Virus record (IMG/VR): IMGVR_UViG_3300032320_000343
Span: 1 to 31,466 of that record
Length of the DNA: 31,466 nucleotides
Direction: 5' to 3' (one strand)
From: a virus
Taxonomy: Duplodnaviria > Caudoviricetes
Both the position numbers and the translations under genes were made by a program. The notes beneath the pieces were generated by a model. The model did not search any database. It was not told where the DNA came from and was given only the letters and a program-made list of their open reading frames with translations. How positions within the stretch are numbered: the first letter of the stretch is position 1; each line of letters starts with the position of its first letter. Positions 2,489-30,358 of the stretch are shown piece by piece.

Positions 2489-5341
2489 TTAAACTGTAGT
2501 GAGCGAAACAAGCTCAGAATTTTGCAAGCGCTTTGGATAGTAGGCAAACTTCTTAATAGTGCCGTTTAATTGCCTTCCTGTTGGATAGCAACCAATGAAC
2601 AACCTATCTACGATTGGCACAGCCCCCGAGGTAAAGTTTGCCGCAGCAGTTATATTGCTTGCCCCACCATAATCTCCAAACTTATAGGCTGCCGTGAACT
2701 TTGTCGAAGTTGCACCGTAAGTAAATAGTCCACCTCCACTTGGCTCAAATTGAAACGCAGTAGAGCTTGTTGCTGTTGCAGAAGATTTATATATAAATAT
2801 TCTTGTGGTATCGCTAGCGGCTTGAATTGTGAAAAGATATGGAAATGCTCCACCACTTGATATTGGTGACTCCACATAAACAGTACCCTCATCAGCCTTA
2901 TACCAGCTACTAAAGTTAGCGCCAATCATGCTTGCAGAGTCTGGCGCCCGTGTGACCGTACTTCCTTCAGTCTTAATATAGCTGGTACTGAAAGCGCCAA
3001 GCTCTAACTGTGCACCCCAAAGGTAGATGCCGTTATTCGCAACACCAAGATGCGTTCCGATAGCATTTGTAGATTGCGGCTCTACATACCAGTTGACCGT
3101 TGTACCAGAGGATGTTGCGGTTACGGCACAGCGATACCATCCGTTACCTACGGCAGTCATTGTTGCGGAAGTAAATGTTCCAGATGTAACGCCAACCGCT
3201 CCTGATGTTAAGTTAAAAACAACATTGAAACCAAATCCTCCTTGTGCCTGCGTATATACAAAACCTCGCTCTGCCGCTTTTGCATAAAAAGTAAAAGTGT
3301 ATGCTGTTGAATTTGCGACAGTCGCTGATTGTCGAATAACATGGTTTTGAGTAACCCCACCAGCTTCATTAAGTTTGTCACCAGTAAGAGTTCCATTTGG
3401 CGCAATAATTGTATTTGCAATAACTGTTACTGCTGTGCCGCCATCATCCTTAACCCAAGTGGCGTTATCAAATTCTTCAGACCTAAGAAATAAATTAGCC
3501 CTCTGCTCCTCAATCTCTAATCCAAGGCTCTCACCAGTTACAGGGTCATGCTCAAAGCGAGGTACTCCACTAGCAGCAGTTTGCAGAGCAGGGATGTAGT
3601 TTGTGATTGGAGCTGTGGTAGTGGGAGTATATGCGCTGACTGAGCCTCGTTGTTCAAGCTGAACGCCCCATATCAAAAGTTCAAGTCCCAATGTTGCCCC
3701 TGCACCAAAGTTGAAAAGCACAATAAGAGTCGCAGAAGATAAAGTTCCAGTAACTGTAAATCTTTGCCAAGTTGTTGTTGCAGTCCCTGGAGACGGAAAA
3801 GAGCCGCTAGGTATTACAAGAGTTCCAGATGGGACTGAAGCCCAAAATGATAGCGTGTATGTTCCTGTAAAAGTGCCACCCGGAGCCTGCGACATATTTG
3901 GGTAATTCGCATTCGTTGTGACAAAACGCATTGCTGTAGTTGTGCCATCAGGAGCAACCGCATAATTGTCTGTCCTAGCAGATGAACCGCCAGAGTCAGC
4001 GCCCCAGTTTGCAGCCATCCCTGTGCCTTGTGAAAACTTTATTAAATTCTCCTCAGCCTTAGCAACAGTTTTGCCATCGTAGAATGTGCCAGTAGATGCC
4101 CTTGTGAAAGTGATACGAGGGTCTAATGTCTTAGTATTAGCAAAGTCTAGCAAGAGGCTTGGGCGAATTGAGTGACGTACTGGCTCGTTACCGAGGGCTA
4201 CAGCAGATGCAGCAGCAGCACTAGCACTTGCGGAGTTGGCACTAGCCAAAGCCTCAGCCGCTTTAGTAGTAGCAGTCGCAGCGTTAGCAGAGGCAGAGTT
4301 AATAACAGCGGTATCCGCGGCCACTTGGTTTACGTTAGCAATGTTTCCACCAACATTATTCACGTTAGCTATAGAGCCAGCAACCGTAGTCACGTTAGCA
4401 TTATTTGTAGCTACAGTTGTGACATTACTAGAGATGCCTGCTACCGTGGTTACGTTAGCTGCAACACCAGCCACAGTCGTTACGTTAGAAGATATACCTG
4501 CAACAGTTGTTACGCCTGCTGCAACTCCAGCTACAGTCGTGACGTTGCCAGATATACCAGCTACGGTAGTGACGTTTGCGTTATTGCCACCTACGGTATT
4601 TACGTTAGAGATGTTAGTGCCGACTGTGTTTACGTTACCAATATTTACGGCTACCGTATTGATTTCAGATACGGGCTCGTTCAAATCATCCGCTACGGTA
4701 TTGACGTTATATTGAAACGTAGCAACCATCGTTACATCGCTTGATATACCAGCAACTGTATTGACGTTAGCTATGTTTCCGGCTACTGTATTTACTGATG
4801 CAATATTAGTAGCAACAGTATTGATGTTGGCTGACTGAGCTGCAACCGTAGTTACAGCGCCAATGCTAGGGCCTGCCTCTGGATTGCCTGTAGTTGCGTT
4901 AAACGCGAGCACAGTACCAACGCGGGATGCCTTAGCAGGCAAAGTCATATTGATATCAGTTGGATCTACTACTGGAGCCTTGAGGCCACGCTCTGCGGTC
5001 TCGGCTACCTGCTGAATAAAGATGGTCTGGTTATCCAGCTCATCATTTAAAGTATTTGCAAATAGGTCGCCGCCTGTAGTAAAGTCTGTGGTGCGCTGGA
5101 TGTTCTTAGCGCCGACAATCGTAATGTTGCTTGTGCCAGCTGTAGCTACCAGCGTTACAGAGCCTGTACCGTTAGCGTTAATTATTACGGTATAGTCAGT
5201 AGTCAGGGTCAGTAAAGTGCTGGCCTTGTATACTGCGATATCGGTTTGGTTTAGGATCTCAAACGTAAACGCATAAGGGCCTACGCCACTTGGCGCATAG
5301 ACCACTCGTCTCGGAACATTACTTATTGCGTAGTCAGCCAT
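2489..5341 (-). CDS. Tail fibre / receptor-binding protein
   Basis: N-terminal T7-gp17-like attachment domain (YAFTFEI..DYTV..RTTDF..TLNDELD), 10-aa NVTTVAG repeats, Ala-rich coil and two related beta-rich C-terminal domains. Confidence 0.9.
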   Translation of the reverse strand: MADYAISNVPRRVVYAPSGVGPYAFTFEILNQTDIAVYKASTLLTLTTDYTVIINANGTGSVTLVATAGTSNITIVGAKNIQRTTDFTTGGDLFANTLNDELDNQTIFIQQVAETAERGLKAPVVDPTDINMTLPAKASRVGTVLAFNATTGNPEAGPSIGAVTTVAAQSANINTVATNIASVNTVAGNIANVNTVAGISSDVTMVATFQYNVNTVADDLNEPVSEINTVAVNIGNVNTVGTNISNVNTVGGNNANVTTVAGISGNVTTVAGVAAGVTTVAGISSNVTTVAGVAANVTTVAGISSNVTTVATNNANVTTVAGSIANVNNVGGNIANVNQVAADTAVINSASANAATATTKAAEALASANSASASAAAASAVALGNEPVRHSIRPSLLLDFANTKTLDPRITFTRASTGTFYDGKTVAKAEENLIKFSQGTGMAANWGADSGGSSARTDNYAVAPDGTTTAMRFVTTNANYPNMSQAPGGTFTGTYTLSFWASVPSGTLVIPSGSFPSPGTATTTWQRFTVTGTLSSATLIVLFNFGAGATLGLELLIWGVQLEQRGSVSAYTPTTTAPITNYIPALQTAASGVPRFEHDPVTGESLGLEIEEQRANLFLRSEEFDNATWVKDDGGTAVTVIANTIIAPNGTLTGDKLNEAGGVTQNHVIRQSATVANSTAYTFTFYAKAAERGFVYTQAQGGFGFNVVFNLTSGAVGVTSGTFTSATMTAVGNGWYRCAVTATSSGTTVNWYVEPQSTNAIGTHLGVANNGIYLWGAQLELGAFSTSYIKTEGSTVTRAPDSASMIGANFSSWYKADEGTVYVESPISSGGAFPYLFTIQAASDTTRIFIYKSSATATSSTAFQFEPSGGGLFTYGATSTKFTAAYKFGDYGGASNITAAANFTSGAVPIVDRLFIGCYPTGRQLNGTIKKFAYYPKRLQNSELVSLTTV
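4310..4860 (-). repeat. Degenerate ~30-nt (10-aa) tandem repeats in the tail fibre shaft
   Basis: Translated repeats of the type N(V/I)(N/T)TVA(G/T)(N/I/V)xx, on the order of 15-18 copies. Confidence 0.85.
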
Positions 5342-24120: not shown

Positions 24121-25122
24121 ATGTCAGGATATCACCTAACAGACGCAGAGTTTATAGCCGAATGGAACGCCGCCCCTAATGCGGTTGAGATGGCAAAGAA
24201 GATTGGCGTTAATTACCGCAATGTATTAAAGCGCAGGCGCGGTATTGAGTCCAGAAACAACATTATCTTAGAGGCAAAAGGCATTGGTCAAGATAAACTC
24301 AAGTACCAAAACATTCAAATTACTAGAGCTGAGGAGACTCCGCACCATGCTAGGCGTGAGACCCAGATGGAGAAGGGGCGCGTAGTCGTATTCTCCGATG
24401 CCCACTTCTGGCCAGACGATTACACTACCGCATACAAAGCGCTCCTAATGATTATCAAGGAGTTCAGACCTAAAGTTGTGATTGCAAATGGGGACGTGTT
24501 TGATGGCTCCCAGGCTTCACGCCATCCCCGTATCGGCTGGTCTAATACGCCAACCATCAAGGAGGAGTTGGAGGCTTGCAGGGAGTTCATGGGCAATATT
24601 GAAAAGGCTGCAATCGGCGCAGAACTGATCTGGACTTTAGGCAATCACGATGCCCGCTTTGAAACATTCCTTGCAGCTCAGGCTGGGCAGTACGAGGGAG
24701 TTGAGGGCTTTACCCTTAAAGACCACTTTCCATTATGGAAACCTTGCTGGTCTTACTGGGTCAATGACGATACGATGATTAAGCACCGCTGGAAAGGCGG
24801 GTTCTCAGCTGGCCGCGCTAACTCGCTTAACGCTGGAGTTAACATCATTACTGGCCATACACACAACTTGGCCGTTCAGCCGATTACAGACTTTAGCCCA
24901 GCTTTCCGACATAACGGAGGTACACGTTACGGCGTACAGACAGGCACATTGGCAGAGCCACACTCGGAGCAATTTGTTCATTACACCGAGGATAACCCAA
25001 AGGACTGGAGATCAGGGTTTGCCCTACTGTCTTTTGAGCGTGGTCGCCTGATGTTGCCAGAGTTAATCCAAGTCTGCGGCGAGGATGAATTTGAATTTCG
25101 AGGTTGTATAAATAAAGTATGA
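24121..25122 (+). CDS. Calcineurin-like metallophosphoesterase with N-terminal HTH-like segment
   Basis: All five motifs: SDAH, GDVFD, GNHD, H and GHTH; N-terminal MAKKIGVNYRNV; RBS AAGG. Confidence 0.9.
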   Translation: MSGYHLTDAEFIAEWNAAPNAVEMAKKIGVNYRNVLKRRRGIESRNNIILEAKGIGQDKLKYQNIQITRAEETPHHARRETQMEKGRVVVFSDAHFWPDDYTTAYKALLMIIKEFRPKVVIANGDVFDGSQASRHPRIGWSNTPTIKEELEACREFMGNIEKAAIGAELIWTLGNHDARFETFLAAQAGQYEGVEGFTLKDHFPLWKPCWSYWVNDDTMIKHRWKGGFSAGRANSLNAGVNIITGHTHNLAVQPITDFSPAFRHNGGTRYGVQTGTLAEPHSEQFVHYTEDNPKDWRSGFALLSFERGRLMLPELIQVCGEDEFEFRGCINKV

Positions 25123-25472
25123 GAATCACGCCCGAGGCTGTGCGCCACCTTTACTCTAGCTTGGTAGTAACCTACCCCTTCACCAAATGGCCTATGCCTT
25201 TGCCAGAAACTGTGGATTTTCAAATTATCCATGACCGAGATTTAATGGGCAGCTATTTGTATTGCGATTCGGATGACTACGAACACACCATAACCATTTC
25301 ATCGGCTAGGTGCGCGCACTTCTCAACTTTGCTAAGTACCCTTTGCCACGAAATGGTACATTGCAGCTTTCACAAACAAAAGGGTGATAAGTGGTTGCAG
25401 CATGGGAAACCCTTTCGGACTAGGTGTTTTATGGTTGCCCTTGAGATTGGCCTAGATCCATTAGAGCTGTAA
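25119..25472 (+). CDS. Small zincin / SprT-like HExxH protein
   Basis: I.IS...LL.TLCHEMVH...HG..F pattern; ATGA overlap with the phosphoesterase gene. Confidence 0.8.
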   Translation: MRITPEAVRHLYSSLVVTYPFTKWPMPLPETVDFQIIHDRDLMGSYLYCDSDDYEHTITISSARCAHFSTLLSTLCHEMVHCSFHKQKGDKWLQHGKPFRTRCFMVALEIGLDPLEL

Positions 25473-25640: not shown

Positions 25641-26468
25641 TTAGTCTCCGCAAAAGCAAGATATTCCTTCTTCATCAGTTTTAAACATATCAGCCTGATC
25701 TGCTGCAAAATTCTTCATTTGAATATAGCTTGGCCTGTCTTTTCTAAACCTAGCTCCATCTCCTGTAAACTTTCCAGCGGAGTGTATTCTGGCCTCTTGC
25801 TCTGCCCACCAGACGGCTCTTTCGGGCTTTTCTGCAATAAGGCTTAATGTTTGTGGGTACCCCTTTAAAAAACATAAATCACAGTTGCCGTGATAAGTTT
25901 TACCTTTAAAGTTTGGCAAACCTAAATCAAAAGACTGCTCATTCCAAAATTTACCTACATCTGCTGCGGTAATACCTGCGGTAAATAAAGGGACTCGCTC
26001 CCTTGCCATTTTTGCGGCCCTTCTTGGTTCATCTGCCCTGATGCCAACCCAGTCCATATTCTCGTTGTGTTTCCATCCAAGGGATTTTAAATATTTATCT
26101 ATTGTGCGTATTTTTAATTCAGCAGTACAAAACCTCGTTACTGGATTTGGTAAATAGTTTTTCTTTGTAATTAATGCCTCAAAAGGCTCACCGTTTCTGC
26201 TGGCTGTAACAAAATCTACAACCTTGAATTTTGGGTCATCTGGTATATATTCTAGCCAATGTATAGGAACATTCCAGTTTTGACCGCAATCTCGCACAAA
26301 TTCCAACGTAGCTTCTTCTTCTTTACCTGTATTTGCAAAAACTACAATAGCGTCAGCAGGCAACTCGCCGTTGTTGGATTGCAATATACGCCAAAGCATA
26401 TAACCAGAAGTGCGACCGCCACTAAAACTAATAACTGTTGGCTCCAATATTTCAAAGGGATCGCTCAT
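25641..26468 (-). CDS. PAPS-reductase-family (PP-loop) protein
   Basis: SFSGGRTS PP-loop, NTGKE, RFCT.ELK, GIRADEPRR, NCDLCF and terminal SCFC. Start moved to ATG 26468 (TAATG overlap). Confidence 0.88.
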   Translation of the reverse strand: MSDPFEILEPTVISFSGGRTSGYMLWRILQSNNGELPADAIVVFANTGKEEEATLEFVRDCGQNWNVPIHWLEYIPDDPKFKVVDFVTASRNGEPFEALITKKNYLPNPVTRFCTAELKIRTIDKYLKSLGWKHNENMDWVGIRADEPRRAAKMARERVPLFTAGITAADVGKFWNEQSFDLGLPNFKGKTYHGNCDLCFLKGYPQTLSLIAEKPERAVWWAEQEARIHSAGKFTGDGARFRKDRPSYIQMKNFAADQADMFKTDEEGISCFCGD

Positions 26469-26689
26469 TACGCAAACTGACAAATGAATAATACAATTCC
26501 AGAAAAGTAAAATATAACCGCTACAGCCTCAACCACAAATAGCGGTTTATCGTCTAGCGCATAGCCAGCAGTTGCCCAGATCGCGGATCCAATAAACCCA
26601 AGGATCAAGTTTGCCGGATAGATATTGAGCGCGGTCAATAGAATACTCAGCAGGCAGATGCTTGTGCCAATCCATTTAAATTTAATCAT
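26468..26689 (-). CDS. Small membrane protein (about 3 TM; DUF6552-like)
   Basis: KWIGT...L....LTALNIYP.N....FIG...W; ATG 26689 with RBS AGGA. Confidence 0.7.
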   Translation of the reverse strand: MIKFKWIGTSICLLSILLTALNIYPANLILGFIGSAIWATAGYALDDKPLFVVEAVAVIFYFSGIVLFICQFA

Positions 26690-28975: not shown

Positions 28976-29171
28976 TTGCAGCTCCTTTTTTTAAATTAAC
29001 GGGGAAAAATTGAGTGGTACACCCCGCCCCTAGTGACAGACCCGGGGGGGGGTAACGTGCCTCTGTTTTTTTGACTGTTTCAGCCACAGCCAGCAGGCCT
29101 CGATGCCTTTGCTTGTAGGCACACACCCCTGTGTTGCCCCTGCATACCACCGTTTGGATCGCATACAACCC

Positions 29172-29951
29172 TTATCCCGCCTTGCTTTGCTCATCGAGCA
29201 GCGCTCTGGCTAGGTCTAGGATGGATTCTGGCGGTGATGTACGCGCTTTCAGCCAGATCTCAAGGTCGCGCCTGAGCATCTGCTCTGTCATTCCACACAT
29301 TCCAATCATTTCAAATCCTTTTAAATCTAAATCATTTATTACTTTTTCTTTTAAATACACACTTCTATACACATCTTGGACTATGCCCTCTACGTTGTTA
29401 TGCGTTACCAGTTCATTCCCAGAGGCTTTCTTTATCACTTCTAATGCCTGTGCCTTTACTGGCAATTTAATCGTCTTACGAGCCGTTCTAGTGGCTTTTA
29501 GGGGTACTGTACTCATGCTTTGTTGCTCCTCTTCTATCATCTGTGGACTTCTGCTCTCATCGGACATCGCTGCTATCGCGTCATTTGTGCCGATATCTGC
29601 ATTGAATATAACTCTCGTTGTGCTCGTATGGCTATTCTTACCGCCCTGCACAATCGTTTTTATATAATTATTCTTTCTTAATGATATGAGTTGGCGAGTG
29701 ATTGCTGGCCTTGTAACTCCGAGGTCTTTAGCCAGCCTATCTTGCCCGACCCACGTAATCCCAGCTCTATTGCAGTAACTACAAAGCAATCCCAATACTC
29801 TGATGGCTGCGTTGTCCAGGCTCCTGTCCTTAAGCGCTCGCAATGGCATCACGGCTATCTGCCGCTGATCTGGTAGTGCAGGCTTTAGCTTTACTTTTGG
29901 CTGTTTTGGTATGGAGAAGTTTGGTTTATCCCCTGTGTTTAAAATCTTCAT
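29172..29951 (-). CDS. Putative replication initiator with winged HTH
   Basis: D..L...AIRVL..LCSY.N..G..W.GQ.RLA.DLG..R.AI.R....L....YI; RBS GAGG; located among RusA and SSB genes. Confidence 0.75.
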   Translation of the reverse strand: MKILNTGDKPNFSIPKQPKVKLKPALPDQRQIAVMPLRALKDRSLDNAAIRVLGLLCSYCNRAGITWVGQDRLAKDLGVTRPAITRQLISLRKNNYIKTIVQGGKNSHTSTTRVIFNADIGTNDAIAAMSDESRSPQMIEEEQQSMSTVPLKATRTARKTIKLPVKAQALEVIKKASGNELVTHNNVEGIVQDVYRSVYLKEKVINDLDLKGFEMIGMCGMTEQMLRRDLEIWLKARTSPPESILDLARALLDEQSKAG

Positions 29952-30190
29952 AGAACCTCACCCGCTATGCTTATAGCGTTTTTTGCTTTCGCAAAGTATC
30001 TATCGTTTATCGCTGTGTCTAGGCTATTTACCTTCAGAGTGCTAGGCCCGATCTTTTCGATGGTCATCCCCCCTGATTCGACTGCGTTTATCTGAGTCTG
30101 GCGATACTCCATTCTCAAGGGCTGGGTTATGGCCCCGTTATTAGTTTCTAGCAGAATATCTGTCATCTGTCTATAAATGTTAACCATCAT
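29948..30190 (-). CDS. Possible 80-aa leader ORF overlying a structured RNA
   Basis: Starts immediately after the upstream TAA and ends in an ATGA overlap with the initiator; no recognisable protein motif. Confidence 0.35.
   Translation of the reverse strand: MMVNIYRQMTDILLETNNGAITQPLRMEYRQTQINAVESGGMTIEKIGPSTLKVNSLDTAINDRYFAKAKNAISIAGEVL
29963..30136 (-). ncRNA. Candidate structured RNA / origin element upstream of the replication initiator
   Basis: Stems TGAG-AA-TGG..CCA-GA-CTCA, ATC-GAAAA-GAT, TTTGC-GAAA-GCAAA and CGCTAT-AAGC-ATAGCG; GATAAACG occurs twice. Confidence 0.5.
30145..30173 (-). promoter_or_regulatory. Putative sigma70-type promoter
   Basis: TAGACA-N17-TAGAAA with extended -10; shares TTCTGCTAGAAACT with the capsid promoter. 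Confidence 0.55.
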
Positions 30191-30358
30191 TTATTGCAGA
30201 CTGACTGGCAATTCAAATAGCGGTATCTCATTGCTCCACCAGCTGTAATTACATTCCCTGCACACTCTGCGCCTGCAAATCCAGTTGCGCTCCTCATGCT
30301 TACGTGTCTCTGCTACCTTAATATCTTGGCTATCGCATATCTCATTTGGGCAAATCAT
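30191..30358 (-). CDS. Stand-alone NrdR-type zinc ribbon protein (55 aa), not in ORF track
   Basis: MICPNEICDSQDIKVAETRKHEERNWICRRRVCRECNYSWWSNEIPLFELPVSLQ*: CP..C, V.ETR and RRR.C..C pattern. Confidence 0.75.
   Translation of the reverse strand: MICPNEICDSQDIKVAETRKHEERNWICRRRVCRECNYSWWSNEIPLFELPVSLQ

Follow-up and report, generated by a model that had tools for sequence, protein, structure and literature searches.

What kind of element occupies the short stretch in front of a putative replication initiator gene in a small phage, and what does it do there? The locus lies in a virus record of 31,466 nt, the whole of which is called the window here (31.5 kb, 91% complete). The window encodes a terminase, a head-tail connector, a major head protein, tail proteins, RusA and SSB, and its phage possesses its own TerS, TerL and portal-type connector. 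A sequence-only reading of this DNA had proposed an undescribed RNA-based control or primer element, overlaid by a coupled open frame.

The locus and its neighbours

Three open frames follow one another on the minus strand. A gene for an NrdR-like zinc ribbon (30191..30358; Pfam PF22811, E 6e-9) lies upstream; its stop abuts the start of an 80-codon frame (29948..30190), with a spacing of +3. As noted from the letters alone, this frame begins immediately past the upstream stop and terminates with an ATGA overlap with the next start, that of a gene encoding a 259-aa winged-HTH protein (29172..29951). Largely within the frame, on the same strand, lies a structured element extending from 29954 to 30137 (covariance model R1, 141 bits), which is read here as an RNA gene. 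It is present in a single copy in the window, and its conservation begins and stops sharply at both ends.

The HTH protein had been labelled the replication initiator. The matches behind this label are weak, namely those to the PHROG replication initiation protein (E 6e-5) and to Pfam HTH_36 (E 6e-7). Its best relative is found at E 2e-12, and its sole relative in a GenBank phage is encoded by Methylophilales phage MEP301. A comparison with solved structures returned no relative below E 0.018.

Elsewhere in the window, genes for a metallophosphoesterase and a SprT-like protein (24121-25472, plus strand) run counter to the general direction, and a PAPS-reductase-like gene is found at 25641-26483. 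A G-rich element on the plus strand (29001-29052) adjoins the 3' end of the HTH gene and is made of GGAAAAATT, a C-run and two G-runs. It also occurs in many relatives, including some that do not carry the structured RNA, and many contigs stop close by; it is a candidate packaging or terminus site, or a candidate origin. DnaA-box-like repeats follow the G-rich element at three loci (L221, L222, L280) and short direct repeats follow the structured element at two others (L277, L288), with an iteron-like appearance.

Homologous elements in other phages

Homologous loci were collected with the 80-aa product as query (25 loci), with DNA patterns and with the HTH protein. Among the viral loci listed for the first DNA pattern, 105 of 119 match the element profile at E<1e-3; the matches listed are a lower bound, and about 240 public phage stretches are estimated to contain this pattern. 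The second pattern, drawn from the other end of the element, retrieved 60 loci with the element out of 120. By contrast, only one of 120 loci found by the first pattern in bacterial genomes matches the profile at the same threshold. This lone match lies on a 2.7-kb contig in a small genome, none of its 16 family neighbours carries the element, and it gives no clue to the host.

In total, 287 parsed loci with the element yielded 166 distinct full-length members of 175-250 nt and 75 representatives (<88% identity, sequences longer than 250 nt excluded). Alignment A3, made with MAFFT, contains 48 of these 75, mainly long or insertion-bearing representatives having been left out. Insertions of ~30-100 nt, some of them self-complementary, are seen within hairpin P6 at five loci (L280, L282, L323, L337 and L252). 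Two others (L267, L327) show an internal deletion or truncation right after the first conserved motif, due either to recombination or to an assembly artefact.

A conserved fold with two long-range pairings

Folding of the single sequence was considered as proof of structure and rejected, since it is significant on neither strand: the element has a z of -0.90, with 44 of 200 shuffles equally good, and the opposite strand a z of +0.34. As the lone sequence folds no better than shuffles, the structure rests on the homologs. On alignment A3, 90.5% of 1,376 cells are paired and 24 of 29 pairs show changes on both sides. The pairing score was reached by none of 500 shuffles, controls with slid pairings are 30-56% paired, and compensatory base changes exceed what relatedness would lead one to expect, as they do in structured non-coding RNAs. 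A measure of further pair types did not rise above shuffles. RNAalifold recovers P1 and P2 unaided. With this comparative support, the structured RNA is almost certainly real, and on the same footing the element is a conserved, double-pseudoknotted fold common to diverse aquatic phages.

From 5' to 3', the element consists of P1 with its loop L1, P2 with its loop L2, an AUAAA segment, P3 closing P4 and P5, AUAAAC with four further nucleotides, one strand of pseudoknot PK1, P6, P7 and a terminal GGGU. P1 (30119..30136) is paired in 99.5% of cells, with changes on both sides in three of its four pairs, and L1 holds the ACCC (30127-30124) that serves as the 5' strand of PK2. P2 (30092..30118) comprises 5 bp, a 2x2 purine internal loop and 3 bp; it is 98.1% paired, with both-side changes in seven of eight pairs. 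Its AA/GA internal loop corresponds to the tandem purine mismatches already noticed in one of the stems. L2 (30108-30102; 7-8 nt among homologs) contains the 5' strand of PK1 (30107-30103).

A repeated motif had also been pointed out, and indeed GATAAACG is present at 30092 and again at 30011, the minus strand having no further copy anywhere in the 31-kb window. The first GAUAAAC junction (30086..30092) is highly conserved, with AUAAAC in 73 of 75 representatives, a motif that was partly built into the search patterns. It leads into P3 with its three-way junction (30011..30086), which encloses P4 (30076-30034) and P5 (30033-30021) and whose peripheral stems vary in length. The P3 pairs are canonical in 73, 72, 70 and 57 of 75 representatives, the register having been set by hand for the clade of the window. 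P4 and P5 derive from folds of individual sequences, and P4 is just 62.8% paired on A3, where it is misaligned. The second GAUAAAC junction, a 4-nt spacer and the 3' strand of PK1, GAUAC (30000-29996), follow at 29996..30011.

The two long-range pairings, PK1 and PK2, come in addition to the features reported before. For PK1, all five pairs can form in 69 of 72 representatives (three members with a long P2 excluded), and 26 of 29 cognate combinations of loop and strand types reach the score of 5, compared with 25 of 812 non-cognate ones. P6 (29982..29995) is a variable hairpin, and in the window it is devoid of DnaA-box-like 9-mers. The GAAA tetraloop reported earlier does cap this hairpin, but it is not conserved among homologs. 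The last segment (29956..29978) includes P7, which is the 6-bp hairpin described as touching the ribosome-binding site: it spans 29978-29963 and abuts GGGTGAGG (29963-29956). GGGU (29963-29960), the 3' strand of PK2, overlaps the likely ribosome-binding site GGUGAGG. PK2 is 100% paired in the 48 aligned sequences, with both-side changes in two of its four pairs. It is mostly invariant; the swaps GCCC/GGGC and ACCU/AGGU occur in two sequences each, and a third group has AUCC/GGAU. PK1 and PK2 may be separated by as little as 20 nt, with 3-10 bases unpaired in 37 of 75 representatives.

A scan of the window against Rfam 15 gave no match at the gathering thresholds and none on the element at E<=10, in keeping with the undescribed element proposed by the sequence-only reading; at 20 + 18 homolog loci, no match was found on the element at E<=1. 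So far as Rfam 15 includes them, this covers manA, ARRPOF, raiA, c4 and Polynucleobacter-1 RNAs as well as ribozymes and riboswitches. RF01718 was found in none of five genomes, a search in which the control was also silent. Resemblances to HDV, a group I intron, a c-di-AMP riboswitch or a telomerase-like RNA were dropped for want of an Rfam match. Full-text literature searches found no description of the element, although the models of PMC10690425 (30-151 nt, from IMG/VR), judged from the accessible part of that paper, may list a fragment. The motif was not found in the supplements of PMC2864571, where alignment gaps could hide a match. The RNA family thus appears uncatalogued, its fold being strongly supported by comparison of homologs.

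The 80-codon frame

Since the stems lie under an open frame, covariation had to be set against codon-level conservation, and the outcome is that the pairs covary and the protein is not conserved. Substitutions at the three codon positions number 17/20/19 in the frame; in the same 18 members, the HTH gene has 69/47/159. Synonymous changes amount to 15 of 56 in the frame versus 139 of 275 in the HTH gene. The 80-aa product has 85 relatives among predicted proteins, and a domain search with it found nothing above the cut-off. All three frames are interrupted by stops in 124 of 166 members. Judged by these substitution patterns, the frame is not an ordinary protein gene, which would show a synonymous bias and be kept open across homologs.

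The frame can nevertheless not be regarded as a pure shadow of the RNA; this interpretation is overturned for the clade of the window, in which the frame is open and coupled. In 53 of 53 members of this clade (three of the 56 do not have the flank), no stop interrupts it between P1 and a point at most 25 nt from GGGU, compared with 3 of 107 others. An upstream in-frame ATG is present in 51 of 53 clade members versus 8 of 107 elsewhere, the shuffle null being 18.5%. Column-resampled chimeras contain a stop in 13-46% of draws, compared with none of 29 real sequences. In 0 of 56 clade members does the spacing of the two motifs bring the TAA contained in the second one into frame, versus 17 of 62 members elsewhere, a weak indication as there are only five length classes. 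At the downstream end, the stop of the frame falls -14..+4 nt from the HTH start in 44 of 56 members and -26..+8 nt in all 56. At the upstream end, the frame starts -20..+9 nt from the stop of the preceding gene in 29 of 42 cases, involving nine upstream lineages, and farther away in the other 13. No Shine-Dalgarno-like site precedes the internal AUG in any of the 56 members, and GGUGAGG has a predicted unpaired probability of 0.02-0.3 over six bases. A frame that is kept open and coupled while its amino acids drift suggests that, in the clade of the window, it is probably a bridge by which ribosomes leaving the upstream gene reach the HTH gene. The coupled leader frame first described holds within this clade (53/53 open, 56/56 coupled), and outside it the frame is open in 3 of 107 members.

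Predicted promoter and nature of the molecule

A promoter had been predicted in front of the stems. A predicted site does exist; a consensus scan gave TTAACA-17-GATATT (30183-30155), but it is a second site that has its spacing in common with homologs. The latter is a sigma-70-type site on the minus strand (30145..30173) composed of TAGACA (30173-30168), 17 nt and TG-n-TAGAAA (30150-30145), with 9 of 12 matches. It ends 7 nt ahead of the element, and transcription is predicted to start at ~30138. In 111 of 162 members, a promoter-like site (score >=8) ends 4-10 nt upstream of the element, compared with 170 of 3240 random positions; on the 5' side of the remaining members, a terminator-like tract is found in 30 of 162 and neither feature in 21. 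In some members of this terminator class (L607 at ~4760-4880, L608, L611 and L614), a branched RNA with a terminator lies 15-20 nt upstream of the element. It is c4/CI-like in appearance but has no Rfam match.

Other signs bear on whether the active molecule is RNA or single-stranded DNA. At the base of P2, U-G and U-A exchange in representatives (61 and 9 of 72), and among 181 short loops there are 33 GNRA and 16 GNRNA loops and no GNA triloop. Together with the promoter spacing, these patterns point to an element that acts as RNA rather than as single-stranded DNA. The element is likely a stand-alone RNA gene expressed from its own predicted promoter.

Genomic context and a second RNA family

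Of the 166 members, 56 lie directly before an HTH gene, 26 are convergent with one, 13 have none nearby (that is, within 0.9-1.3 kb), and 71 have too little flank. Those directly before the HTH gene form a single clade (tree support 100/100). In other settings, the element adjoins a terminase operon back to back, follows terL immediately, or precedes genes for RecE/YqaJ, a primase-helicase or a methylase; in G028 it follows terL and is ~4.5 kb from the HTH gene. This comparison does not support an RNA that is inherently the leader of the initiator gene: outside one clade, it aims at the 3' end of that gene or adjoins terminase or early genes, and no frame stays open across it. As its position, orientation and neighbours vary while it stays single-copy (8 of 8 near-complete carriers), the element behaves as a gene of its own.

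MEP301 (MW452941.1) carries the element at 33433-33610 on the plus strand (103.5 bits), and this phage and MW202825.1 are the only GenBank phages found with it; a search of plasmids, made with one query, gave no match. In MEP301, gp54 (33584-33730) is annotated as a hypothetical gene of 48 codons antisense to the 3' end of the RNA, and may be spurious. Five of 13 near-complete HTH phages have no match to the element. In four of them (G058, G059, G060 and G062) it was not found, and an unfiltered search of two whole such genomes and half of a third gave a best E of 0.13.

The fifth, the complete genome G070, holds a second structure instead. This type II RNA (~240 nt) occurs at five loci (L585, L586 at ~1175-1420, L587, L593 and L580), in the same two positions as the first type. 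It has a covarying long-range 5' helix, a 5' loop complementary to its 3' end and similar A-rich junctions, but it is not matched by covariance model R1, and two scanned loci gave no Rfam match. It stands directly after an HNH endonuclease gene, the four such proteins scanned being all HNH. We infer that the first type was replaced by the second as part of a homing cassette.

Possible functions

The preferred interpretation is that the element is an origin-activating or primer RNA for phage DNA replication, a proposal to which we assign a probability of about 0.35. It is the best guess because of DnaA boxes, a plasmid precedent and closeness to an initiator-like gene. That MEP301 possesses neither a DNA nor an RNA polymerase also speaks for it. 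Element tails totalling 9,851 nt contain 20 DnaA-box consensus 9-mers, as against 35 in 359,250 nt elsewhere, a ~21-fold excess. They sit in P6 of one clade, often as an inverted pair, and in four genomes of this clade (~57 kb) five of eight boxes fall within the element. The clade includes complete genomes without an HTH match (G004, G005 and G007). The tree shows that the box-bearing members are one clade and hence one evolutionary event, and the window itself has no box. Downstream of the element, boxes show no clear excess (3 of 41 and 2 of 48 loci). The precedent is ARRPOF RNA of the Fusobacterium plasmid pKH9, whose region is needed for Rep-independent replication according to the accessible part of PMC5737381. 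As for closeness, the element lies beside an initiator-like gene, on either side, in 82 of 95 members with enough flank, a figure inflated by the many members fetched via the HTH protein; 11 of 36 representatives with flank have no HTH gene nearby. The HTH gene also adjoins the terminase block, so that closeness fits packaging equally. Four near-complete HTH phages without the element, the distance in G028 and the weakness of the initiator label also weigh against an origin role.

Under the origin or primer reading, a short transcript would begin at ~30138, downstream of the start codons of the frame, which fall within the promoter region, and would fold so as to keep the HTH ribosome-binding site paired; with the start codons missing and this site paired, it would yield no HTH protein. 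On a read-through operon message, ribosomes translating the frame would unfold the element and reinitiate at the HTH gene. An R-loop is envisaged for the folded RNA, which would remain attached to its template through a hybridised 3' end, with the ACCC of L1 paired either to the GGGU of the same molecule or to GGGT on the displaced strand. Loading of the host helicase would meanwhile fall to the phage HTH protein or, in the box-bearing clade, to host DnaA. According to the accessible part of PMC6127211, DnaB can be loaded by way of a DnaA box present in a single-strand hairpin. Taken as a whole, the element may tentatively be seen as a new class of replication-origin RNA that clamps the template, primes together with HTH protein or DnaA, gates translation in one clade and can be replaced by an HNH-carried RNA, a composite picture that remains doubtful.

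Other explanations must be weighed against this one. The main rival, almost as probable as the preferred reading, is a folded RNA acting in trans: its 3' GGGU would enter the L1 of the next molecule, giving head-to-tail rings or cages that serve packaging, scaffolding or as a decoy for host proteins. RNA assemblies of this general kind are formed by phi29 pRNA, manA and ROOL/GOLLD. The free variation in position and orientation and the frequent proximity to terS/terL would suit such an oligomer, as would the short segment between PK1 and PK2, which, on a geometric estimate, would put strain on PK2 within one molecule should P1 and P2 be stacked. ACCC/GGGU moreover resembles the 4-bp loops of pRNA (PMC3753930, in the part available), and in both manA and ARRPOF the long-range pairs that covary join separate molecules. 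On the other hand, the phage of the window has a TerS, TerL and portal-type connector of its own, raiA, of like size, is a monomer (PMC12286853, in the part available), such an assembly would leave the DnaA boxes unexplained, and four near-complete relatives have no match to the element. A cis-acting leader or riboswitch, in which PK2 and P7 pairing would toggle access to the ribosome-binding site with a coupled frame as in repY/tap, is rather unlikely. GGGU does overlap the HTH binding site in 56 of 56 clade members, the 5' strand of P7 could pair with the same GGG in 47 of 75 representatives, and the frame is open and coupled; but the 3' end is the same where no gene follows, and the arrangement is confined to the one clade. 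An R1-type antisense control is not borne out, an antisense promoter-like site being present in 1 of 56 clade members compared with 25 of 280 shuffles.

The signals at the 5' side could also speak for a nascent-RNA antiterminator heading long operons, of which HK022 put is an example. The element stands behind a promoter-like site in 111 of 162 members or a terminator-like tract in 30, and the accessible part of PMC8024684 describes MEP301 as having no DNA or RNA polymerase of its own. This reading is unlikely, given that 26 members run into a convergent gene and that mostly opposite-strand ORFs follow at L223, L251, L253 and L261. A new class of self-cleaving or processing ribozyme, very unlikely in our view, would suit the size, the two pseudoknots and the near-invariant A-rich junctions, and the 30 members without a promoter-like site would need a processed 5' end; against it, no Rfam ribozyme matches and a promoter sets the 5' end in most members. 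It is highly improbable that the fold acts as a single-stranded DNA priming signal or that the frame encodes a small protein in the ordinary way. Boxes for DnaA are sites on DNA and lie in a hairpin as in the A site (PMC6127211, in the part available), and the product does have 85 predicted relatives, but the GNRA loops, missing GNA triloops and promoter spacing contradict the former, and the missing third-position bias, the low synonymous share and the stops in all frames the latter.

New ribozymes, riboswitches and RNA assemblies usually come from orphan RNAs as large and as conserved as the present one, whose fold is suited to probing or cryo-EM and recurs in hundreds of public phage contigs. 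The element can be tested now, since it is carried by a cultured phage-host pair, that of MEP301. The subject bears on how replication starts in small phages without polymerases. The locus also illustrates how an RNA gene can lie within a coupled operon, overlaid by an open frame of unconserved sequence that gene prediction reports under hypothetical proteins (85 entries).

Comparison with known systems

Plasmids R1 (tap/CopA) and IncI (repY/Inc) use coupled leader peptides, and ColE1 RNA II is a folded primer transcript. In the clade of the window, the locus has in common with R1 tap and IncI repY a non-conserved peptide frame over a structured RNA that ends at the start of an initiator-like gene, and the frame is likewise coupled to that gene. 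It differs in that no antisense promoter is conserved (an antisense terminator A-run occurs in 11 of 56 clade members), that the RNA is not always 5' of a rep gene and in other clades has no such frame over it, and that the coupling extends to the upstream gene as well. With ColE1 RNA II and the A site of the ABC primosome (the latter from the available part of PMC6127211), the element has no sequence relation, and it has no equivalent of RNA I; its boxes occur in one clade only and a one-query search of plasmids gave no match; what is shared is the working model of a folded transcript, a displaced strand and a DnaA box in a hairpin.

A three-way junction is common to the element and phi29 pRNA, and so is a loop pairing of 4 bp whose letters are almost identical, aacc/uugg in the accessible part of PMC3753930 and ACCC/GGGU in PK2. 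The window phage, however, encodes TerS and TerL, prohead binding by the element is hypothetical, Rfam gives no match, and the element does not occur in all phages of a packaging group, as expected of a pRNA, five of 13 near-complete relatives being without a match. From bioRxiv 10.64898/2026.07.01.735769, as far as available, manA (RF01745) shares a length below 200 nt, aquatic phages and long-range loop pairings that may be intermolecular; it differs in phages and neighbours, oligomers of the element are hypothetical, and Rfam does not assign the element to any family. The raiA, ROOL and GOLLD RNAs differ in that the element has no Rfam match and no tRNA association at the loci examined; in the available part of PMC12286853 they too are orphan, highly structured and pseudoknotted RNAs, and raiA is of like size. 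ARRPOF RNA has another topology and other hosts, the element matches no Rfam family, and the need for replication has been demonstrated for the ARRPOF region whereas the role of the element is only proposed. Nevertheless, in what is available of PMC5737381 and PMC12990946, ARRPOF is like the element a ~200-255 nt RNA with several pseudoknots that lies in or near a replication region.
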